Source: Patescibacteria group bacterium
Lineage (GTDB): Bacteria > Patescibacteriota > Patescibacteriia > JAXHNJ01
Direction of reading: 5' to 3'
NCBI GenBank assembly: GCA_041649715.1
Contig: JBAZMP010000001.1
Span: 82,741 to 146,740 of the forward strand
DNA: 64,000 bases
Positions 304-52,538 of this stretch are shown piece by piece (position 1 is the first letter of the stretch; each line of letters starts with the position of its first letter). The position numbers and the translations under genes were made by a program. The notes below the pieces were generated by a model. The model saw nothing but the letters and a program-made list of their open reading frames with translations, did no database searches and had not been told where the DNA came from.

Positions 304-382
304 GTCGCCAGTCCGCCGTGAACTACTAAAGAGTTCACGACGCCATGTACCCTTTAGTGGTACATGGCGATTCTGGCCCCAG
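304..382 (+). pseudogene. tRNA-Phe 3' fragment (25 nt copy of the T-arm and acceptor 3' strand) interrupted in the T-loop by a 54-nt double-hairpin element
   Basis: gtcgccagtccg at 304-315 and attctggccccag at 370-382 are identical to the tRNA-Phe 3' part. The insert at 316-369 is ccgtgaact-actaaag-agttcacg followed by gccatgtacc-ctttagt-ggtacatggc. Confidence 0.75.
316..369 (+). repeat. double-hairpin element, copy A; loops ACTAAAG and CTTTAGT are mutually complementary
   Basis: Two adjacent perfect hairpins. Homologous copies lie at 4670-4724 and 52367-52421, with compensatory stem changes and the loops preserved. Confidence 0.8.
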
Positions 383-407
383 ACATCAACATTTTTAAAA
401 TTTTACT

Positions 408-2195: not shown

Positions 2196-3083
2196 ATGCC
2201 TGTTTTAGATTTTATCAAAGAAAATTCAAGCAGAGAGCCTGTAGGCGGTATATATAATTTTTTGCCCCCGGATTTGGACAAGATCAAAGCGATTGAAGTT
2301 GACACGTACTCGCAAAGGGCGGAGAAATTTAACGAAGAAAAGATTTTGAAGGGTAGCTTTTCCGAATTAAAACTATTTACTCCGATTTTTAACCAGGGAA
2401 AAGAAGGCAAATTGTTTTTGGAAATCGGAGGCGGTGACGGCCGTTTCGCCCTTCAATTAATGAAGCAGGGCTATAAGGTGGTGGAAACGGATATTGCTCC
2501 GGGTTCTGTTAAAAAAGCCCGCTATTTCGCAAAAAAACTGGGAGTGGCGGAGAATAACTATTTTATGGCGGTAGACGCGGAAAATCTGCCTTTTGATAGC
2601 GAGGTGTTTGACGGGGTATTTATGGTCGCTTCCCTGCACCATTTACCGGATTTCAGAAAGGCTCTAGCCGAAATTTACCGTGTGACGAAAAAAGATTCTC
2701 CGGTTTTGATCCTGCGCGAACCGGCCAGCTGGTTCCATTATGTTTTTTGGCCGATCATTGTCAGTTTCCGCGGGCTTATCAGAAGAAGGAATAAAGGCGA
2801 AGCAAAATCGCTGGCCGATGATGTGACGATGGGTTTTTCCCGCGGCAAATTAAAAAGAATATTTGCGGCCGCCGGTTTTACCGAAATAAAAATAACGCCG
2901 GTCGATTATTTGCGTAAATATAATACTTACTTTTGCTATATTTTTAACCGTCTTTTCAAAACAAATTTTTCTGAAAATACGAAAATCAACTATTTTTTGG
3001 CAAAAATAGATAAAATGATCGGCAAAATTCCCCTGATAAAAGAGTTGGCCTGGGATTGGGATTGCGTGATGTCTAAAAAATAG
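2196..3083 (+). CDS. class I SAM-dependent methyltransferase
   Basis: LEIGGGDGRF glycine-rich motif I, acidic residue after beta-2 (VETDIA), motif post-I/II. Confidence 0.65.
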   Translation: MPVLDFIKENSSREPVGGIYNFLPPDLDKIKAIEVDTYSQRAEKFNEEKILKGSFSELKLFTPIFNQGKEGKLFLEIGGGDGRFALQLMKQGYKVVETDIAPGSVKKARYFAKKLGVAENNYFMAVDAENLPFDSEVFDGVFMVASLHHLPDFRKALAEIYRVTKKDSPVLILREPASWFHYVFWPIIVSFRGLIRRRNKGEAKSLADDVTMGFSRGKLKRIFAAAGFTEIKITPVDYLRKYNTYFCYIFNRLFKTNFSENTKINYFLAKIDKMIGKIPLIKELAWDWDCVMSKK

Positions 3084-3125
3084 GTCTTGAAAAAAAATAT
3101 ATTTCGTGGCATCCTTTAAAATAAT

Positions 3126-3478
3126 GCGGGTATAGTATAATGGCTATTACCTGCCCGACTGCTTTGACAGCAGTCAAGGCGGGCGGGTGTCAGCTTTCTC
3201 CCGCAAAATAAGGAAGCGGAGCGACTATATTTTTCGAGGATCCCGCACGCAAAATAATAGTGTTCATTAAGCGGGCATAGTATAATGGCTATTATGTCAG
3301 CTTTCCAAGCTGAAAATACGGGTTCGATTCCCGTTGCCCGCTTAATGAGTGTTATTTTTCGGGATCCTCGCAACAAGATGGATTCACTTTGTTCATCTCA
3401 TCGTTGCGGGACAAGCTGAAAATACGGGTTCTGCGCCCGAGGCGCATCCGCCTTGGGTGGAGATTCCCGTTACCCGCT
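3126..3478 (+). tRNA. split or interrupted tRNA-Gly(TCC) gene with three insertions; either intron-containing or a pseudogene
   Basis: Exon pieces 3126-3149, 3188-3198, 3412-3431 and 3462-3478 reassemble into a tRNA-Gly that is near-identical to the intact copy. The insertions are 3150-3187 (hairpin), 3199-3411 (between anticodon nt 35 and 36, ends tcccgcaa/ttgcggga) and 3432-3461 (T-loop). Confidence 0.6.
3271..3342 (+). tRNA. tRNA-Gly, anticodon TCC, discriminator U; nested inside the 213-nt insertion of the split tRNA-Gly
   Basis: Acceptor gcgggca/tgcccgc, anticodon stem tcagc/gctga with loop ttTCCaa, 4-nt variable loop, T-arm acgggttcgattcccgt. Confidence 0.85.
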
Positions 3479-3579
3479 CCAATTTTTTTCGCTTTTAATA
3501 AGACTTGTTCTGCCGTTGGCAGGGGCCCTGCCCCAAAATTATTATTTTTAACGCCCATTAAGGCGATTTTTTTGTAAAA

Positions 3580-4275
3580 TTATAACACCGACTGTAATTT
3601 CTTTTTTGCTGAATTATAAAATTTTTCTGCTATTTCATATCCAGAAAAAGATCCCCCATTCTTTAAAACACTAACGCCTAAGTTTGCCGTACCCATAAAT
3701 GGGTCTAATATGTTCATGCCAGTTCTGAAATATTTTTTTATTATAAAATCAATTAATTCTTTGGGTTCAGCACAAGGATGTTCATTTGAATGCTTATAAT
3801 TAAAATAAAGAATTTCTCCAGTTTTATATTCAATTTTTGATTTATTAAAGACCAAGATTTGATGGCAATTAGAATGTGTGTTTGAAGAAGTCAAGTAATT
3901 TTTATCAAAACCATGATTGGGTAATTCAAAGCTATTTTTTGTATTTATAAAATTAATATGCCTTGTTTCCAAAAACATGTTAGCATTAACAACGGCATAT
4001 TTTTGAATCAAGCCAGCTAGTTGAATAAACTTGTTGTTAAAAAAGATGCTATCGGCAATTTCTATAATTAATCGGCCATCTTTTTTAAGTGTTTTTGCGC
4101 ATTCTTTAATTACATTCTTCATGAAGTTGAAATATTTTTCTAATTTTAATTTGTCAGTATAGCTGCCGTAATATGTCCCTATATTGTACGGTGGGCTAAA
4201 AAAGACAATGTCAACTGATTTTGGCTTAATTTCATTCATCGATTCCGATGATTTGTTAAAAATTGTATATTTCAT
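3580..4275 (-). CDS. DNA methyltransferase, beta-class (N6-adenine or N4-cytosine); no adjacent restriction enzyme seen
   Basis: Motif IV SPPY near the N-terminus (DIVFFSPPY) and motif I FxGxG near the C-terminus (DPFMGTANLG), which is the permuted beta-class order. Confidence 0.7.
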   Translation of the reverse strand: MKYTIFNKSSESMNEIKPKSVDIVFFSPPYNIGTYYGSYTDKLKLEKYFNFMKNVIKECAKTLKKDGRLIIEIADSIFFNNKFIQLAGLIQKYAVVNANMFLETRHINFINTKNSFELPNHGFDKNYLTSSNTHSNCHQILVFNKSKIEYKTGEILYFNYKHSNEHPCAEPKELIDFIIKKYFRTGMNILDPFMGTANLGVSVLKNGGSFSGYEIAEKFYNSAKKKLQSVL

Positions 4276-4411
4276 ATTAATATCATAGCTAAAGACAGCT
4301 TATCTGTAAATCTGGCCCATAATAATCAATAGAATCACCCATAAAATATGTCATTGTTTATTCTGCGGCCTAGATAAAGACTTACTTAAAGTATGAGTAT
4401 TAACTTGTTTT

Positions 4412-4440
4412 TTGACAATAAAAGTTATTGTCCTTATAAT
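4412..4440 (+). promoter_or_regulatory. consensus sigma70-type promoter, TTGACA-17-TATAAT
   Basis: ttgaca at 4412-4417, a 17-nt spacer, and tataat at 4435-4440. Confidence 0.65.
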
Positions 4441-4446
4441 ATAAAT

Positions 4447-4576
4447 AGTTCTTAAGAGACGCTTTTTTCCAAAGCCGGGCAAACAGGTATCGTAACAGTC
4501 GCATAATATGAGGTGGTTCCAATCCACCCTGTTAGATAGCCCGGTACCCCTGCATGTCGCATGCGGGGGTTTTCTT
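4447..4576 (+). ncRNA. candidate small RNA of about 130 nt with a T-arm-like hairpin, ending at an intrinsic terminator
   Basis: Starts just downstream of the consensus promoter. Nested helices gccgggc/gcccggt and aacagg/cctgtt surround ggtggttccaatccacc. Terminator cccctgcatg-tcg-catgcggggg plus tttt at 4547-4576. No ORF. Confidence 0.45.
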
Positions 4577-4651
4577 ATGGAGTGAAAAAGGCTAAGTATT
4601 GCCAAAAGAGAATAAAATGCTTATACTTTTGATATATTGATGGGAAAATAG

Positions 4652-4736
4652 GCCGCCGTGGTGAAATTGCCGTGAACCACTAAAGGGTTCACGGCAACCC
4701 CGCACCCTTTAGTGGTGCGGGGTGGTATACACGCAA
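4652..4736 (+). pseudogene. duplicate of tRNA-Leu(TAA) nt 1-30, interrupted in the D-loop by a 55-nt double-hairpin element
   Basis: gccgccgtggtgaaattg at 4652-4669 and gtatacacgcaa at 4725-4736 are identical to positions 1-30 of the tRNA-Leu at 5011. The insert lies at 4670-4724. Confidence 0.8.
4670..4724 (+). repeat. double-hairpin element, copy B (ccgtgaacc-ACTAAAG-ggttcacgg caa ccccgcacc-CTTTAGT-ggtgcgggg)
   Basis: Same architecture and loops as the copies at 316-369 and 52367-52421. Confidence 0.8.
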
Positions 4737-4747
4737 TAATTAATATT

Positions 4748-5005
4748 ATGCATACAGTCTATATCCTTTTACTTTCGAATAAACAATTATACACTGGAAT
4801 CACTACAAATTTAATACGAAGAATAAATGAGCATAAAGAGAGAAAAAGTCCGTTTACAAAGAATCGATTGCCCGTTAAACTGATATTTTACGAAGTGTTT
4901 AACAATAAGGAAGATGCGGAAAAGAGAGAAAGATATTTTAAAACGAGTAAGGGGAAATATTCATTAAAGGCGTTACTACGACATGCATTGAGCAAATATA
5001 ATTGA
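4748..5005 (+). CDS. GIY-YIG nuclease family protein, small UPF0213/YhbQ-like; the ORF track starts at 4712 but ATG 4748 is the likely start
   Basis: VYILLLSNKQLYTGITTNLIRRINEH matches the GIY-x10-YIG...R...E motif. The upstream extension of the tracked ORF overlaps the tRNA fragment and hairpin element. Confidence 0.7.
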   Translation: MHTVYILLLSNKQLYTGITTNLIRRINEHKERKSPFTKNRLPVKLIFYEVFNNKEDAEKRERYFKTSKGKYSLKALLRHALSKYN

Positions 5006-5010
5006 TCCAT

Positions 5011-5097
5011 GCCGCCGTGGTGAAATTGGTATACACGCAAGACTTAAAATCTTGTGGGAGCAATCCCGTGTCGGTCCGAGTCCGACCGGCGGCACCA
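5011..5097 (+). tRNA. tRNA-Leu, anticodon TAA, type II with a long variable arm; CCA encoded
   Basis: Acceptor gccgccg/cggcggc, anticodon stem caaga/tcttg with loop ctTAAaa, variable arm gggagcaatccc, T-arm gtcggtccgagtccgac, terminal acca. Confidence 0.85.
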
Positions 5098-5218
5098 AAA
5101 AATAGGCCACGTAACTGATGGTCTGTTTTTTTGATATGATCCTTGACTTTAGGCGTTAGTAATGCTAAAATATATGAGTAAACAACGAATTTTGATATTA
5201 AAAAAATAAAAATATATT

Positions 5219-5635
5219 ATGACTTACGAAGAAAAAAAACAAATCTTAAACAATCATAAAAAGGAAAAAAATTATTATTACGCGATTTTGGCTCTTATTT
5301 GCCTAAATTTTATTTATGGTCTTATTGTGTCTATTCCAAAGTTTAAGGATATAAGTATGCCTGACAAAACTGATCTTGCCGGTTTTGGTCTCATCCCGGC
5401 CGGCATGGTTATAGTCGCCTTGATTATAGCCATTGGATTACAGGTATTATATTTTTATGGAATTTTACGGCTACAAGGCTGGGTGACGATATTCATGTGG
5501 ATTGGTTTTATCGGCTCAATCTTATCTTTTGACCTGGTAAACATAATCATTACAGCCGTCATATTATTCGGCTATAAAAAAGTGTTAAAAATATTCAAAT
5601 CAACGATTCCTGCTCAGCCAAAGCCACAAAGCTAA
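5219..5635 (+). CDS. hypothetical membrane protein with 3-4 transmembrane helices
   Basis: Hydrophobic segments. Preceded by a TTGACT-17-TAAAAT-like promoter around 5147-5175. Confidence 0.4.
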   Translation: MTYEEKKQILNNHKKEKNYYYAILALICLNFIYGLIVSIPKFKDISMPDKTDLAGFGLIPAGMVIVALIIAIGLQVLYFYGILRLQGWVTIFMWIGFIGSILSFDLVNIIITAVILFGYKKVLKIFKSTIPAQPKPQS

Positions 5636-5672
5636 CCATAGAAACAATTAAAACATATAATGATAAAAATCC

Positions 5673-6386
5673 ATGAAAAATAAAATCTTAATCGGTTTGT
5701 TTATTTTTTGCCTCGCTTTGATTGGCGCCGGTTGTGGAGAAAGTACCGACACTCATAATATCAATAAATCTGCAACTATCGCCAACGTGACGATTCCTTC
5801 TTCCGGAACACTCGGCCGTTTTATGGGAAAATTGGACACCCTGGTCATTGCTTCGGAGGATCTGCCGGTCGCCTACGGTCCCTATAAAGGAACTGATGAT
5901 TATCAAGACTATGGATATTATAAAGCGAGCCATTTAAAGGAAGAAGAAGAAAAAGCCGGCTATAATGAAGGTGATTTAATCCAATTATATATCGCAGATA
6001 AGATTGTCTCAGCCAATGATTATGGGTTATCAAGCGTTGATTTAAGCTTTCATGAATTTAAAGATACGGCTACGGCGGCAAAAAATTACGCTTATAATAA
6101 AGGGTATTATTTAGAGATGGGGATAAAATCATTTTCCAATATAAAAGATGAACATTTCTATTATGGAGATACGTCTAGCGAATCAAGCAATTCCCAGTAC
6201 TCAACAACTCGTTGGGGCATAAGTATTCTGATTGACAACTTGTGGGTTAATATAAATATTGATTTGCCCGCTACGGCGACTGCCACGGAAATAAACAGCA
6301 TCGTTGATAATTGGTATAAAAAAGTGGAAGTATATCAGCCAGGAACAGCCGCCGATGTGACCGCGGAAAATGCCTCCGGCATATAG
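5673..6386 (+). CDS. hypothetical lipoprotein
   Basis: Signal peptide with lipobox LIGAGC. Confidence 0.45.
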   Translation: MKNKILIGLFIFCLALIGAGCGESTDTHNINKSATIANVTIPSSGTLGRFMGKLDTLVIASEDLPVAYGPYKGTDDYQDYGYYKASHLKEEEEKAGYNEGDLIQLYIADKIVSANDYGLSSVDLSFHEFKDTATAAKNYAYNKGYYLEMGIKSFSNIKDEHFYYGDTSSESSNSQYSTTRWGISILIDNLWVNINIDLPATATATEINSIVDNWYKKVEVYQPGTAADVTAENASGI

Positions 6387-6486
6387 GATATACGCTAATA
6401 ATAATTTCCGTATAGTATTAATGTAGATATAATATTTGATATTATAAAAAACAGATCTCGAATCCAGGGTCTGTTTTATTTTATAA

Positions 6487-6918
6487 TTATATTCCTAAGG
6501 CAATAAGGATAATACCGATGGGAAACAAAGCCCAGTAAAAACTCGGGACGCCTGCAAACCAACTTTTATGCCACCAGATATCTTTATTATTTTTATTGAA
6601 TTTAGTCAAGCCGTAATGGGGATTCAGGACAAACCATAAAAAATCTTCCAAAGTCCACATCGAGATAAAGACCCCGAAAAGCAAGGCCTCTTTTTTCCAG
6701 GACCAACTGGCGAAAAACAGGGGAAAATGAAAAATAATCAGAGTGAAGAGAATGATAAAAATATGATAGCCCGTGATCGGTTTCTCCCCCATTTTCTTTT
6801 TTAGCCGGAAAGTGGGCAAGTCAGCCGCCCAGCCATGTTTGCCTTCAATTTGAACTTCCAGGGCGGCCAGCGCTAGACTCGCGGCCAAAGTAAAAAATAT
6901 TAGTGATATTATCTGCAT
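6487..6918 (-). CDS. hypothetical integral membrane protein
   Basis: Multiple hydrophobic helices. No recognisable motif. Confidence 0.4.
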   Translation of the reverse strand: MQIISLIFFTLAASLALAALEVQIEGKHGWAADLPTFRLKKKMGEKPITGYHIFIILFTLIIFHFPLFFASWSWKKEALLFGVFISMWTLEDFLWFVLNPHYGLTKFNKNNKDIWWHKSWFAGVPSFYWALFPIGIILIALGI

Positions 6919-14459: not shown

Positions 14460-14705
14460 CGGCGCATCTCCCGAAGGGAGATACGAAAAAGGAAGGCTTT
14501 TTAAGAAAAAGCGCGGACAGGGCGGGCGGCCGACCCCCCCCGCGCACCGGCCGCCCGCCGACCGGTCAGACGAAAAAGGTGCGAACTTTTTCGTAAAACC
14601 GGCTCCAGTTCGTAAATTGCGATTTTTTTGTGGCGAATAACCACTGATTAGATAATAAAATTAGGGCTTTTTGCCCGAAGACTTGGAAGTTCGACACCCG
14701 CGACG
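14460..14705. repeat. inverted repeat copy B: inverted relative to both copy A (9253-9447) and copy C (16139-16229)
   Basis: Reverse complement of 14483-14609 equals 9297-9423. Reverse complement of 14609-14705 equals 16139-16229 over about 92 bp. Confidence 0.85.
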
Positions 14706-14773
14706 ACGGGGGGCTCCGCCGGAGGCGGAGCAGCCAATTTTTCTAAGTTTAAATAAAAGCGAAAGCGACAACT

Positions 14774-16312: not shown

Positions 16313-16384
16313 AGGTCACGGGCGGATTCGAACCGCCGAATAACGGTTTTGCAGACCGTTGCCTTACCACTTGGCTACGTGACC
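16313..16384 (-). tRNA. tRNA-Cys, anticodon GCA, discriminator U; no CCA
   Basis: Acceptor ggtcacg/cgtgacc, anticodon stem acggt/accgt with loop ctGCAaa, T-arm ggcggttcgaatccgcc. Confidence 0.85.
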
Positions 16385-16419: not shown

Positions 16420-16478
16420 AAAGTTCATTTTCGAAGACCACTTTCCGCCCAAGGCGGACCCGCCTCTGGCGGGGGCTA
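16420..16478 (-). pseudogene. tRNA-Cys-like fragment: ttcgaa, then GC hairpins, then a 12-nt copy of the tRNA-Cys 5' end (ggctacgtgacc)
   Basis: ggctacgtgacc at 16467-16478 duplicates 16373-16384. The preceding ccgcccaaggcgg and cccgcctctggcggg hairpins replace the tRNA body. Confidence 0.45.
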
Positions 16479-16531
16479 CGTGACCGAAACGGTATTTAAT
16501 ATTCTAGCAAATTCCTTAGAATTTACAAGGC

Positions 16532-52234: not shown

Positions 52235-52347
52235 ATTATTATTTGCACCCTTCCTTTTGATTAATTAATTGATAATTACACTTGAAAATAATTTTAAAAA
52301 AAATGCCTGGTAGGCGGGAATAATATTTAATTTTTAATAAAATTATG

Positions 52348-52424
52348 GTGAGCGTAGAGGGATTCGCCTTGAACTACTGAAGAGTTCACGGCTGCCCCGA
52401 ACCCTTTAGTGGTTTGGGGCGAAC
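52348..52424 (-). pseudogene. tRNA-Lys 3' fragment (copy of the acceptor 3' strand and T-arm) interrupted in the T-loop by a 55-nt double-hairpin element
   Basis: gtgagcgtagagggattcg at 52348-52366 plus aac at 52422-52424 match gtgagcgcagagggattcgaac of the intact gene at 52466-52487. The insert lies at 52367-52421. Confidence 0.75.
52367..52421 (+). repeat. double-hairpin element, copy C (ccttgaact-ACTGAAG-agttcacgg ct gccccgaacc-CTTTAGT-ggtttggggc)
   Basis: The loop 1 A-to-G change still pairs with loop 2 through G:U. The stem 2 changes are compensatory. Confidence 0.8.
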
Positions 52425-52464
52425 TTTTCAATTCCACGTATATTTTAATATGTAATTTTTAAAG

Positions 52465-52538
52465 TGAGCGCAGAGGGATTCGAACCCCCGACACCCTGCT
52501 TAAGAGGCAGGTGCTCTAACCAGCTGAGCTATGCGCCC
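52465..52538 (-). tRNA. tRNA-Lys, anticodon CTT; no CCA
   Basis: Acceptor gggcgca/tgcgctc, anticodon stem cctgc/gcagg with loop ctCTTaa, T-arm gggggttcgaatccctc. Confidence 0.85.

Follow-up and report, generated by a model that had tools for sequence, protein, structure and literature searches.

A GIY-YIG nuclease gene and a double hairpin at a displaced tRNA-Leu 5′ end in Patescibacteria: a candidate cassette that rebuilds its target

Introduction

Dunin-Horkawicz et al. placed minimal stand-alone GIY-YIG proteins in the Slx1 cluster (PMC1564403). Proteins of the UPF0213 family (B. halodurans BH0048, PDB ID: 1zg2; E. faecalis EF2693, PDB ID: 1ywl; the E. coli YhbQ type) are considered products of chromosomal genes, and our literature search found no report of nuclease activity for them and none that links them to tRNA-gene fragments or hairpin repeats. 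The homing endonucleases I-TevI, I-BmoI and Seg carry a C-terminal DNA-binding domain behind an N-terminal GIY-YIG domain. GIY-YIG endonucleases typically leave 2-nt 3′ overhangs (PMC2761285), as does SegB of the T-even phages, which is encoded among tRNA genes and cuts tRNA-gene DNA (PMC2330249). SegB activity is needed for tandem amplification of tRNA and segB and yields repeats in which the 3′ end of segB meets the 5′ end of the tRNA (PMC13096335). In fungal mitochondria, endonuclease ORFs (Allomyces macrogynus atp6; Glomus atp6, atp9, cox2 and nad3) create hybrid genes; the ORF, a GIY-YIG one in Glomus atp9, inserts together with a replacement gene end, and the native end is left as a duplicate (PMC3630166).

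Short repeats of two hairpins form a second group of relevant systems. The DHEs of chytrid and fission yeast mitochondria occur in intergenic regions and structural RNA genes, are conserved across species and are presumed to be mobile by an unknown mechanism (PMC10085805, PMC2800124). The literature that we searched reports no regular association of DHEs with tRNA loops or a nuclease gene. REPIN-RAYT systems and IS200/IS605 derivatives consist of inverted palindrome doublets that form alternative hairpins, exist in many copies and go with one small nuclease-type gene; their stems covary and short motifs are conserved. No REPIN is known to target tRNA loops or to rebuild its target. The classical integrative element inserts at a tRNA gene, restores it from a copy that it carries, and leaves a direct repeat. 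In the phylum studied here, GIY-YIG-encoding insertions occur in CPR rRNA genes, also structural RNA genes, but these are set apart by their description, which includes no tRNA case, gene-end duplication or double hairpin. The tRNA introns published for Patescibacteria belong to group I and interrupt the anticodon loop (PMC13011429).

Here we describe a tRNA-Leu(UAA) locus in a window of 64,000 nt (the whole stretch of Patescibacteria DNA that was analysed), together with related loci, designated by L numbers. A displaced tRNA fragment, a double hairpin, a nuclease gene and an intact tRNA follow one another; a full-text literature search returned no description of this architecture.

Results and Discussion

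A first-pass annotation of the window had reported that the 30-nt 5′ end of tRNA-Leu is present twice, that the upstream copy is interrupted by a double hairpin, and that a small GIY-YIG gene is the only gene between the copies. This anatomy was confirmed. The parts of the locus are as follows:

4599..4627, plus strand: sigma-70-type promoter, TTGCCA-17 nt-TATACT, with 10/12 consensus matches
4652..4669, plus strand: displaced 5′ fragment X, nt 1–18 of tRNA-Leu(UAA), ending at G18 of the D-loop
4670..4722, plus strand: double-hairpin element DH-A, 53 nt, which splits X from Y-prime
4723..4736, plus strand: short tRNA piece Y-prime, nt 17–30 of tRNA-Leu
4748..5005, plus strand: gene encoding a minimal GIY-YIG nuclease (85 aa) of UPF0213 / prokaryotic Slx1-like type
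5011..5097, plus strand: intact tRNA-Leu(UAA) with encoded CCA; nt 1–18 (up to 1–30) are the putative "replacement" copy

The intact tRNA was called by ARAGORN and by Rfam (57.5 bits). A repeat search found GCCGCCGTGGTGAAATTG at 4652–4669 and again at 5011–5028 (18/18 identical), and TGGTATACACGCAA at 4723–4736 and 5027–5040 (14/14 identical). The two upstream pieces overlap by the dinucleotide TG, which ends X and begins Y-prime, and jointly cover nt 1–30 of the tRNA; a 30-mer with 3 mismatches allowed is expected 0 times in shuffled sequence. Since the upstream copy stops at nt 30, there is no complete split tRNA here. Between fragment and intact gene the GIY-YIG ORF is the sole ORF, and the 359-nt insert holds no recombinase. 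The nuclease gene starts with ATG at 4748, and its stop codon (5003–5005) lies 5 nt ahead of the tRNA +1 position. The promoter at 4599..4627 is the native one of tRNA-Leu and would now also drive the fragment, the hairpin and the GIY-YIG gene. The corresponding promoter is directly upstream of the intact tRNA in the related locus L024 and upstream of the fragment in L007, and no terminator-like site was found between the promoter and the tRNA.

A permissive Rfam scan of 3000–6500 returned just two tRNAs and chance-level matches, with no ribozyme core; a group I or group II tRNA intron and a known RNA family were both rejected, and the published Patescibacteria introns are unrelated to this insert. 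No remnant of an older tRNA 3′ part was recognisable beyond 5097. The 10-mer AAAATAGGCC occurs at 4645–4654 and at 5099–5108, maybe by chance; L007 shares only part of it.

The double hairpin (DH) at the junction is a highly regular structure. Hairpin 1 (4670–4694) reads CCGTGAACC-ACTAAAG-GGTTCACGG; the spacer CAA (4695–4697) and hairpin 2 (4698–4722), CCCCGCACC-CTTTAGT-GGTGCGGGG, follow. The halves are inverted copies of each other, their 7-nt loops are mutual reverse complements, and either half is expected 0 times in shuffled sequence. Across the collected loci we found 25 copies of 48–53 nt. We aligned 19 distinct copies, drawn from 9 genomes: pairing holds in 95.9% of the cells, compensatory changes occur in 11/21 pairs (a covariation score reached by 0/500 shuffles), and the loops are nearly invariant. 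A direct repeat of 2 or 3 nt flanks 24/25 copies and varies with the target (TG, CG, TAA, TTA, CA); in 21/25 it is the 2-nt repeat TG or CG, and DH-A at tRNA-Leu is flanked by TG...TG. Such 2-nt repeats are the only, and indirect, hint that the enzyme may cut the empty allele with a 2-nt overhang. Taken together, the properties of DH point to a real, selected, repeated element, best described as a covarying, MITE-like repeat: short, non-coding and multi-copy, with terminal inverted repeats and short flanking repeats. Within the whole locus, this 2–3-nt repeat is the only one that looks like the product of an insertion.

The mitochondrial DHEs are likewise short dispersed repeats of two adjacent hairpins. 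They have no sequence relation to DH and were reported without flanking duplications (PMC2800124), in contrast to the 2–3-nt repeats found here. The gene that accompanies DH also differs from that of REPIN-RAYT systems, being a GIY-YIG gene and not a Y1 HUH transposase: no Y1 (HUH) transposase, TnpA or RAYT was found in the related loci, where GIY-YIG is the only linked gene. No autonomous element with one hairpin at each end was seen; nuclease units have both hairpins on one side. DH stands in either orientation relative to the tRNA and is also present at non-tRNA intergenic sites (L003, L008, L009). G·T and A·C mismatches are about equally frequent in its stems, so there is no sign of one strand folding as RNA. 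The candidate role of an RNA element in the 5′ UTR of the nuclease gene was rejected because DH is downstream of the gene in L031, and further because of the inverted copy at tRNA-Lys and the balanced stem mismatches. By its placement, DH appears to mark the junction with the displaced tRNA terminus. A phage origin was rejected as well, as the DH pattern gave 0 matches in a collection of viral contigs.

The encoded protein is a single Pfam domain (PF01541, E 6.6e-15; 55.6 bits against a cutoff of 22.6; residues 1–69) in an ORF that ends at residue 85; its homologs have 82–96 aa. A six-frame profile search of the window found no second such gene, the only match being 4748–5005. In phmmer searches against the PDB the best matches are UPF0213 proteins, 1zg2 (3e-6) and 1ywl (4.8e-5). 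The AF2 model (pLDDT 91.7) has the order strand-strand-helix-strand-helix-helix, and Foldseek ranked 1zg2, 1ywl, Slx1 (7cq3_A; TMq 0.64, rmsd 1.9 Å) and 6seh. I-TevI (1ln0) is a weak fold match (TMq 0.50) behind the UPF0213 and Slx1 structures. NCBIfam gave no family match for the window protein; only the L007 paralog had a sub-threshold match to TIGR01453 (group I intron endonuclease). Residues Y5, Y15, G17, E49, R60 and E61 are invariant in 28 homologs, and R25 and H29 are at least 90% conserved; the conserved core includes the catalytic Tyr, Tyr and Arg and the metal-binding Glu. The dN/dS of about 0.04 indicates strong purifying selection. Together with the modeled fold close to Slx1, a branched-DNA nuclease, this conservation makes the nuclease look active.

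By sequence and modeled fold the protein is of the minimal Slx1/UPF0213 type, closer to it than to the UvrC or I-TevI lineage. It has the size, fold and Tyr/Tyr/Arg/Glu core of the UPF0213 proteins and, like them, no accessory domain, although the identity to them is only 33–36%. The label "UPF0213-like" given in the first-pass annotation was apt; its description as homing-endonuclease-like was not, in the classical sense, as the 85-aa protein is a bare catalytic domain that lacks a C-terminal DNA-binding domain. SegB shares with it the position at tRNA genes, but is a two-domain, sequence-tolerant phage homing enzyme, while the protein described here is encoded in a bacterial chromosome; neither a hairpin element nor split tRNA fragments have been described for SegB.

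Comparison with relatives gives both states of the site. The syntenic locus L024 has the same nested tRNA-Gly, the same small structured RNA and a TTGCCA-17-TATAAT promoter that is joined directly to an intact tRNA-Leu(UAA). Fragment, hairpin and GIY-YIG gene are all absent there; the start of X matches the start of this intact tRNA exactly. L007 has the same flanks as the window and L024, and is occupied. The cassette is therefore polymorphic in presence and absence at a conserved tRNA-Leu site, as the proposal of an insertion had predicted. This supports an insertion and a mobile origin, and it is a trait that the nuclease has in common with homing endonucleases. The three loci are roughly equidistant, with flanking proteins 74–80% identical. 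Their branching order gave no decision between gain and loss, as L007 is no more distant from L024 than from the window. The gene is also missing from five other loci with the same tRNA-Leu.

A word-index search gathered 33 homologs. At 17/17 inspected distinct Patescibacteria loci the GIY-YIG gene adjoins an intact tRNA gene on the same strand, be it Leu (TAA, TAG, CAA, CAG, GAG), Ser(CGA), Gln(CTG) or Gly(TCC). The homologs at these loci have 52–95% identity, plus one paralog at 31%. A hairpin-split tRNA fragment is present in almost all 17. Wherever the flanks of a related gene are readable, a hairpin pair (DH or DH-like) lies at the displaced-tRNA junction, which agrees with the earlier suggestion that the double hairpin is part of the unit. 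One MAG, JBDRMK, has units at four tRNA-Leu isoacceptors (L001, L002, L012, L026). In the mirror form, which is found at T-loops and is represented by L031, the intact tRNA-Leu is followed by the GIY-YIG gene and then by GGGTTCG / DH / CGATTCCCGCCCCGGGCACCA; because DH is 3′ of the nuclease gene here, it is read as a junction marker and not as a 5′-UTR element. In L016 and L033 the displaced 5′ fragment comes from another tRNA-Leu sequence type than the intact gene, and the two differ in L012 and L017 too. In L012, L017 and L034 an older tRNA, of which the 3′ part persists, encloses the intact tRNA and, in L017 and L034, the nuclease gene as well. Two tools stumbled at these loci: ARAGORN gave overlapping tRNA predictions in L012, and in L031 the gene caller let the nuclease ORF run on into the tRNA.

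Encoded at a TAA locus, the window nuclease is 84–87% identical to that of L001 (CAG locus) and only 73–74% identical to the L007 protein of the orthologous locus; on these values, nuclease relatedness does not appear to track the anticodon. Synonymous sites are saturated between the window and L001 genes, and the divergence from L007 equals that of neighboring genes; from both, residence seems to be long and largely vertical. Near-identical dispersed copies, a sign of current activity, were not seen.

Two more copies of DH in the window (316–367 and 52367–52419) split partial tRNA copies that adjoin the intact gene, with no GIY-YIG gene nearby:

304..385, plus strand: tRNA-Phe T-arm and 3′-end copy without GIY-YIG gene, gtcgccagtccg / DH-A 316–367 / cgattctggccccagaca
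52346..52424, minus strand: tRNA-Lys 3′-end copy with CCA and without GIY-YIG gene, its T-loop split by DH-A (52367–52419)

The former lies 86 nt downstream of the intact tRNA-Phe (144–217), and the latter 39 nt downstream of the intact tRNA-Lys (52464–52538, minus strand, CCA not encoded); both DH copies are flanked by CG...CG. Hairpin-split fragments without a GIY-YIG gene are thus found at four other tRNAs of the window (Phe, Lys, Cys and Gly), those at Cys and Gly split by a second hairpin family, so the nuclease gene is locally dispensable for this architecture. In all, 5/12 tRNA genes of the window have hairpin-split or nested remnants. The spacer of L005 matches the intergenic sequence between DH and nuclease gene in L004 of the same MAG, which suggests that solo DH units derive from nuclease-bearing ones. 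CCA is often found on displaced 3′ ends where the intact gene has none (Lys, Gly, L012, L031, L034). It was considered as a sign of an RNA or cDNA origin of the fragments, a proposal that was dropped since older resident CCA-encoding genes explain it equally well.

To the following explanation, which we favor, we give an even chance. The 359 nt from 4670 to 5028 (equivalently 4652–5010, owing to the repeat ambiguity) would be a small selfish cassette inserted at G18/G19 in the D-loop of tRNA-Leu(UAA). It would consist of the 53-nt DH at the junction with the displaced 5′ end, the nuclease gene, and a replacement tRNA segment. As the cassette would supply a copy of the segment that it cuts off, the tRNA gene would be rebuilt and the cell would survive. 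The nuclease gene, which would have no promoter of its own, would depend on the tRNA promoter for its transcription, and the tRNA would be released by RNase P cutting at +1. Members of the family in Patescibacteria would occupy the D-, anticodon- and T-loops of tRNA genes, in a 5′ type (displaced 5′ end, DH, nuclease, intact tRNA) and a mirror-image 3′ type (intact tRNA, nuclease, DH, displaced 3′ end). In the route that we infer, the nuclease, having no DNA-binding domain, would recognise hairpin or cruciform DNA in tRNA-gene arms, in DH or in both, and would make a 2-nt staggered cut in the loop. Repair from a cassette-bearing copy, on a sister chromosome or in DNA taken up from a relative, would bring in the whole cassette: DH, nuclease gene and replacement tRNA piece. 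With the target rebuilt, repeated insertion and unequal recombination would yield tandem and nested arrays. What remains after deletion of the nuclease gene would be solo fragments split by DH, as found at tRNA-Phe and tRNA-Lys, and the short X repeats would also permit precise loss.

The fungal mitochondrial ORFs follow the same logic as the window layout of displaced nt 1–18(–30), cassette ORF and rebuilt tRNA, and the order in L031 (core, replacement 3′ end, ORF, native 3′ end) is identical to theirs. The fungal targets are the 3′ ends of organelle protein genes, whereas here either end of a bacterial tRNA gene is involved and a hairpin lies at the junction. A foreign carried terminus, a trait of the fungal type, is seen in L016, L033, L012 and L017. 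In the window the copies are 30/30 identical, so an imported and a locally duplicated segment are indistinguishable.

Several observations sit awkwardly with the cassette. The D-loop variant that window and L007 each have in both copies requires gene conversion or re-insertion. The long, largely vertical residence and the lack of near-identical dispersed copies also count against it. In most loci the fragment equals the intact copy, which is awkward for a carried 5′ segment that spreads among paralogs, and during such spread among tRNA-Leu genes the carried acceptor strand must match the local 3′ strand. The rebuilt tRNA stays a target, and its escape from continual cutting is unexplained. Nuclease-less DH-split fragments are common and DH also occurs at non-tRNA sites; DH may be moved by another enzyme and accumulate in dead tRNA pieces.

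This last thought leads to a rather unlikely alternative in which two processes are overlaid. Breaks made by a SegB-like nuclease would be mis-repaired into tandem duplications of tRNA and nuclease gene, and the redundant tRNA copy would decay. DH would be an independent MITE, moved by a transposase encoded elsewhere with a preference for YG or TWA; because insertions into working tRNAs would be lethal, it would survive only in non-essential tRNA debris. The tandem amplification that depends on SegB offers a precedent (PMC13096335), and it is matched by a nuclease stop codon 0–8 nt from the tRNA +1 in every 5′-type nuclease locus and by the L001 array, whose repeated unit takes in 18 nt of tRNA leader, as tandem duplication predicts. 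DH also has the traits of a MITE (terminal inverted repeats of about 25 nt that are 0–3 nt apart, 2–3-nt flanking repeats, non-tRNA copies), and hairpin-split fragments do exist without a nuclease gene. However, a later, independent arrival of DH leaves it unexpected that a DH or DH-like pair occupies every readable nuclease junction, with no clean unsplit fragment among them. In L006, DH lies directly upstream of the nuclease gene without a tRNA fragment, and divergent nuclease clades are paired with divergent hairpins, with loops GTC-nnnn-GAC in L017 and L032 and the 5-nt loops ATAAA/TTTAT in L031. The foreign-type fragments of L016 and L033 are not explained by local tandem duplication, and no transposase was seen beside any DH copy.

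An arrangement that is not mobile at all is more doubtful still. The GIY-YIG protein, encoded in tRNA operons, would serve the host, perhaps in repair or in RNA metabolism, DH would serve in processing, termination or regulation, and the fragments would be debris. The low dN/dS, the neighbor-like divergence between window and L007 and the predicted co-transcription from the tRNA promoter suit a host gene. So does the literature: stand-alone Slx1-like GIY-YIG domains are widespread in bacteria with a proposed role in repair, and one is fused to the tRNA Gm18 methyltransferase TrmH (PMC1564403). Such a gene would hardly be absent from syntenic L024 and the five further tRNA-Leu loci, number just 33 homologs, or occur in one genome as several copies and derivatives at different tRNAs (L001, L002, L012, L026). 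It precedes the tRNA in some loci and follows it in others, and a split tRNA fragment accompanies it in every case. The balance of G·T and A·C mismatches and the occurrence of DH in either orientation, also between unrelated genes, likewise speak against this reading.

The reading in the first-pass annotation was a long target duplication. A literal target-site duplication, in which a long staggered cut by the GIY-YIG or a site-specific enzyme is filled in to give the 18–30-nt repeat, is in our view very improbable. It would account for the identity of the upstream 18-nt copy with the neighboring tRNA in 7/8 5′-type loci (first set) although the tRNAs differ between loci, for the fragment that begins exactly at tRNA +1 in most of them, and for the single D-loop difference between window and L007 (T vs C), each genome having its variant in both copies. 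But a simple duplication around an insert would place DH at the border of the repeat, whereas it is found within it (18 / DH / 12). Fragment and intact gene differ in L016, L033 and L012, and nested L012, L017 and L034 retain the old 3′ part. The second tRNA piece measures 5–13 nt (up to 41 nt in L022), the L001 repeat includes leader, and the known GIY-YIG stagger is 2 nt, not 18–30 nt (PMC2761285, PMC2330249). Foreign fragments and nested tRNAs are what an element carrying a replacement tRNA piece of its own should leave behind. Insertion chemistry probably did not produce the 30 nt as a target-site duplication, and a replacement-bearing cassette, by analogy with the fungal mitochondrial endonuclease ORFs, would fit the sequences better.

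Scarcely credible is a degraded integrase-type island with attL/attR in the tRNA gene and GIY-YIG as its last surviving cargo: the Phe and Lys T-loop fragments do have the typical extent of a T-loop att site, but no integrase or other recombinase was found in or near any of the 17 loci, the same 250–360-nt unit recurs everywhere, the 5′ end and D-loop are rarely used by integrases, the putative core site has DH at its center, and it is implausible that more than 10 loci decayed independently to one and the same minimal remnant.

Returning to the cassette, we offer one bolder version as a tentative possibility only: nuclease and DH would together form a "nuclease-only" transposon, a new kind of mobile element in bacteria, with cruciform ends cut at a 2-nt stagger. 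It would choose targets by DNA shape (extruded tRNA arms at G18/G19, 34/35 and 57/58) and not by sequence, and the host would be kept alive by tRNA rebuilding.

Conclusion

The family of tRNA-loop cassettes outlined here is apparently undescribed. Stand-alone Slx1-like proteins of UPF0213 have had structures since 2005 but no assigned function, and the cassette loci give a hypothesis for their substrate: tRNA-gene hairpins and a cognate double hairpin. If the "nuclease-only" transposon is true, it would be the first mechanistic role for the large orphan UPF0213/YhbQ family, and would explain the nested copies and fragments that are layered on the tRNA genes of reduced genomes. The "insert and rebuild" strategy of organelles would have a bacterial counterpart, on tRNA genes and at either end. 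Such loci are mis-handled by tRNA finders and gene callers, as in L012 and L031. With remnants at 5/12 tRNA genes of the window, tRNA loci seem to be a main arena of selfish-DNA turnover in the ultra-small genomes of Patescibacteria, and probably also of horizontal tRNA replacement.

Anatomy of the tRNA-Leu locus

The window has a G+C content of 44.7% and contains 12 tRNA genes. One of these, tRNA-Leu(UAA), is preceded by a displaced copy of its own 5′ end. The copy is in two pieces, and the 53 nt between the pieces fold as two hairpins (the double-hairpin element, DH; its family is termed DH-A).

4599-4627, promoter TTGCCA-17-TATACT, 5′ of the tRNA-Leu fragment
4652-4669, displaced copy of the first 18 nt of tRNA-Leu (exact match, repeat search)
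4670-4722, DH: hairpin 1, CCGTGAACC-ACTAAAG-GGTTCACGG; spacer, CAA; hairpin 2, CCCCGCACC-CTTTAGT-GGTGCGGGG
4723-4736, second piece of the copy, tRNA-Leu nt 17-30 (exact match, repeat search)
4748 (ATG) to 5003-5005 (stop), GIY-YIG ORF of 85 aa, stop codon 5 nt before tRNA +1
5011-5097, intact tRNA-Leu(UAA) (ARAGORN and Rfam concur)

The two 7-nt loops of the DH are reverse complements of each other. Shuffled sequence gave no tRNA-Leu repeat or hairpin matches. The first-pass annotation had described a 30-nt repeat of the tRNA-Leu 5′ end, with one copy interrupted by the double hairpin and a GIY-YIG gene as the only gene in between. The exact 18-nt and nt 17-30 matches bear this out, and the GIY-YIG gene is the sole ORF between the fragment and the intact gene. 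We regard this anatomy as established. Since the promoter lies ahead of the fragment and no terminator-like site was found from there to tRNA-Leu, the nuclease is most likely transcribed from the tRNA promoter, and RNase P would free the tRNA.

A 10-mer, AAAATAGGCC, is present at 4645-4654, where it overlaps the first three bases of the fragment, and again at 5099-5108, past the CCA of tRNA-Leu. Only AAAAATAG of this 10-mer is present 3′ of the tRNA-Leu in L007, a related occupied locus. The pair could be a chance match or the vestige of a larger duplicated unit.

Empty site and age of the insertion

Scanning a metagenome collection with nt 1-44 of tRNA-Leu returned seven loci. One of them, L024, is syntenic with the window and L007, with the same nested tRNA-Gly, small structured RNA and TTGCCA-17-TATAAT promoter. 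Here the promoter runs directly into an intact tRNA-Leu, and the first base of that gene takes exactly the place held in the occupied genomes by the first base of the 18-nt fragment. The insertion of the window is also present in L007. The insertion proposed earlier is thus supported by an empty site, and its presence/absence polymorphism is established.

Flanking proteins are 74-80% identical across the window, L007 and L024. The nucleases of the window and L007 are 73-74% identical, and this similar divergence indicates that the insertion is old and was inherited vertically in both lineages. The window is no closer to L007 than L024 is. Either the insert was lost precisely in L024, by recombination between the 18-nt copies, or it was acquired on two occasions; under either scenario, the segment is a discrete unit that the genome can do without. 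No near-identical dispersed copies were seen, which, together with the long residence, leaves no evidence of present-day activity of the element.

Another type of 5′ remnant of the same tRNA-Leu(UAA) was observed in L022 (minus strand). It consists of nt 1-11, a 25-nt unrelated insert and nt 16-41, and is separated by 41 nt from the intact gene downstream; neither DH-A nor a nuclease gene accompanies it.

Nuclease loci in related genomes

A word-index protein search found 33 homologs of the window nuclease; the named sources are all Patescibacteria, Parcubacteria or unclassified "bacterium". In all 17 distinct loci read, the nuclease gene has an intact tRNA next to it, in the same orientation. 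Fourteen of these are at tRNA-Leu, with five anticodons. The others are at tRNA-Ser(CGA), where a different hairpin pair splits the anticodon loop at 34/35, at tRNA-Gln(CUG), where the D-loop is split, and at tRNA-Gly(UCC), where the nuclease is a distant paralog and the T-loop is split. In every 5′-type locus (displaced 5′ end, DH, nuclease, intact tRNA), the distance from the nuclease stop codon to tRNA +1 is 0-8 nt.

The mirror image of the window is found in L031, in which an intact tRNA-Leu is followed by 12 nt, the nuclease gene, GGGTTCG, the DH and CGATTCCCGCCCCGGGCACCA. The DH therefore marks the junction of the displaced terminus on either side. A role of the DH as leader of the nuclease mRNA is ruled out by this locus, where the DH is 3′ of the gene. 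That the units recur at many tRNAs and loops and take both mirror forms is established.

Some units consist of a DH-split tRNA fragment with no nuclease gene (solo units). The MAG JBDRMK has nuclease-bearing units at Leu-CAG (L001) and Leu-CAA (L026), and solo DH at Leu-GAG (L002) and Leu-UAG (L012). A different MAG has a solo unit (L005) whose spacer matches the DH-to-nuclease intergenic sequence of the nuclease-bearing locus there (L004), so the solo units look like deletion derivatives of nuclease-bearing units.

A distant homolog (~40% identity) lies in a tandem array of ~365-nt units (L028 1-1250; also L029 and L030). Each unit holds an 87-aa GIY-YIG gene and a conserved spacer with near-palindromic TTAGAAATTCTTA motifs, with no tRNA close by.

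The double-hairpin element

Two more DH-A copies are present in the window, both at sites with no GIY-YIG gene.

316-367, DH-A interrupting a second tRNA-Phe T-arm and 3′ end; intact tRNA-Phe lies 86 nt upstream
52367-52419, DH-A interrupting a second tRNA-Lys 3′ end; intact tRNA-Lys lies 39 nt upstream

A second hairpin family, DH-B, splits a tRNA-Cys 5′ fragment and the T-loop of an old tRNA-Gly(UCC). Hairpin-split or nested remnants accompany 5 of the 12 tRNA genes in the window. A DH-A pattern scan with one genome per species found 12 loci, every one in Patescibacteria MAGs; together with loci retrieved afterwards, the set comprises 25 copies. DH-A is located in the D-loop of tRNA-Leu 5′ fragments immediately 5′ of intact tRNA-Leu (CAG, GAG, CAA, TAA, TAG), in T-loops of 3′ fragments and at a few plain intergenic sites.

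Across 19 distinct copies, 95.9% of cells are paired, compensatory changes are seen in 11 of 21 pairs, and the loops are nearly invariant. The covariation score was reached by 0 of 500 shuffles. G.T and A.C mismatches are about equally frequent in the stems, which gives no pointer to one strand folding as RNA. A direct repeat of 2 or 3 nt flanks 24 of the 25 copies and varies with the target (TG in Leu D-loops, CG in T-loops, TAA, TTA or CA elsewhere). The conserved structure and the short flanking repeats are established. The repeats are what a short staggered cut would leave; typical products of GIY-YIG endonucleases have 2-nt 3′ overhangs (PMC2761285, PMC2330249).

The tRNA-Cys 5′ fragment (16430-16485, minus strand) reads GGTCACGTAGCC, then a DH-B-type double hairpin, cccgccagaggcggg tccgccttgggcgga, then AGTGGT. 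It is 57 nt upstream of intact tRNA-Cys (16313-16384). The layout is that of the tRNA-Leu unit, but with the other hairpin family, no 2-nt flanking repeat and no nuclease gene. Another DH-B-like pair is at ~14697-14729.

The nuclease

The window protein matches Pfam GIY-YIG, and its nearest solved relatives by sequence are the UPF0213 proteins 1zg2 and 1ywl. AlphaFold, given 28 homologs, produced a confident model (pLDDT 91.7). Its fold is closest to UPF0213 and then to Slx1, a nuclease that cuts branched DNA (7cq3_A, rmsd 1.9 Å, 72 columns); the match to the I-TevI catalytic domain is weaker. Minimal stand-alone bacterial GIY-YIG proteins were assigned to the Slx1 cluster by Dunin-Horkawicz et al., and one of them is fused to the tRNA Gm18 methyltransferase TrmH (PMC1564403). 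The first-pass annotation called the gene homing-endonuclease-like. This does not hold in the classical sense, since the 85-aa protein lacks a DNA-binding domain.

The catalytic Tyr, Tyr, Arg and Glu are conserved, and dN/dS is ~0.04 (dN 0.015 and dS 0.42 for L010 versus L027; dN 0.095 with dS saturated for the window versus L001). Both the protein fold and the selective constraint are established. The nuclease identity matrix is out of step with the anticodon: the window nuclease, at a UAA locus, is 84-87% identical to that of L001 (CAG locus) and 71-74% identical to those of the UAA loci L007 and L011.

Origin of the repeat

The repeat had been read as a long target duplication. It does resemble one, in that the upstream 18-nt copy is identical to the adjacent tRNA in most 5′-type loci. 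However, the DH interrupts the repeat internally (18 nt, DH, 5-13 nt) instead of bordering it. The displaced fragments of L016 and L033 represent another tRNA-Leu sequence type than the intact gene, and L033 has two successive older 5′ fragments. L012, L017 and L034 each have a complete intact tRNA nested within an older one that shares its anticodon and has kept its 3′ remainder; the nested segment also includes the nuclease gene in L017 and L034. The working tRNA-Gly of the window is nested likewise in an older tRNA-Gly.

The foreign fragments and the nesting match the pattern of fungal mitochondrial mobile endonuclease ORFs, which bring a replacement gene terminus while the native one stays as a duplicate (PMC3630166). 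One D-loop base differs between the window and L007, and both copies in each genome carry their own variant. This would require gene conversion or re-insertion and counts against a carried replacement. A second possible route to such repeats is offered by analogy with phage SegB, whose nuclease activity leads to tandem amplification of a tRNA+segB unit in which the 5′ end of the tRNA is joined to the 3′ end of segB (PMC13096335). Because the window copies are identical, the two routes are not separable for the window itself.

Nested tRNAs and neighboring features

The working tRNA-Gly(UCC) (3270-3343, no encoded CCA) lies within an older tRNA-Gly(UCC) that spans 3126-3480 as a whole.

3126-3149, outer tRNA-Gly 5′ part, then a long hairpin of 38 nt (3150-3187) and nt 26-36 (3188-3198)
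213-nt insert in the outer anticodon loop (35/36) that comprises leader, tRNA and trailer; its terminal inverted repeats are 8 bp, TCCCGCAA...TTGCGGGA
3412-3431, outer tRNA-Gly 3′ part, followed by a 30-nt DH-B in the T-loop (3432-3461) and the 3′ end with CCA (3462-3480)

The outer copy retains the ancestral acceptor pair found in L007. The leader can pair with the trailer over 8-15 nt, including G.U wobbles when read as transcript, at 3250-3270/3344-3358, at 118-132/213-227, and in L012 and L017. The resulting long stems either lengthen the acceptor stem or compete with it. Such tRNAs mostly have no encoded CCA; displaced older copies often have it.

A boundary motif recurs where whole tRNAs nest in older ones, with (C)CTGCCCGC on one side and GTGGGCAGG on the other.

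L012 3779-4075, a different tRNA-Leu(UAG) within tRNA-Leu(UAG)
L001 3683-3890, boundary-motif site
L033 1765-1835, boundary-motif site
L035 ~1855-1900, tRNA-Lys 5′ half ending at the anticodon, then CCTGCCCGC

These motifs may be the ends of a tRNA-carrying cassette.

A candidate small structured RNA at 4412-4578 has its own perfect promoter (TTGACA-17-TATAAT, 4412-4440) and an intrinsic terminator (4546-4570). Its core of ~75 nt is closed by a long stem and includes a hairpin resembling a T-arm, GGTGG-TTCCAAT-CCACC. The candidate is conserved in L007 and L024, where its position is the same, and gave no Rfam match and no ARAGORN call. Between it and the tRNA-Gly remnants is an orphan N6/N4 DNA methyltransferase gene (3580-4275, minus strand; Pfam PF01555, E 2.5e-25). 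L007 and L024 lack this gene in the corresponding interval, which makes it a further insertion into this tRNA-rich site. The interval of L007 contains a second, divergent GIY-YIG gene.

A candidate mobile element

We propose, at roughly even odds and from sequence comparison, that the DH, a putative structure-selective minimal GIY-YIG nuclease and a replacement tRNA piece form a selfish cassette. The cassette would enter a tRNA-gene loop after a 2-nt staggered cut, recombinational repair of the cut would install it, and the solo DH units would be non-autonomous derivatives. In the main rival explanation, which we consider unlikely, the DH is an independent MITE collecting in dead tRNA pieces made by nuclease-triggered duplications. 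Against this, nuclease genes are strictly paired with hairpin elements, and divergent nuclease clades carry different hairpin types.

Our literature searches turned up no description of the fragment/DH/nuclease architecture, of bacterial DH elements, or of GIY-YIG genes in Patescibacteria tRNA genes. Known neighbors are group I introns in anticodon loops of Patescibacteria tRNA (PMC13011429), non-intron GIY-YIG insertions within CPR rRNA genes (PMC11270868), mitochondrial double-hairpin elements (PMC10085805, PMC2800124), target-rebuilding mitochondrial endonuclease ORFs (PMC3630166) and phage SegB (PMC2330249, PMC13096335). There is a real chance that the pair of nuclease and hairpin element is a new type of mobile element, which would then provide the first functional clue to the UPF0213 family.
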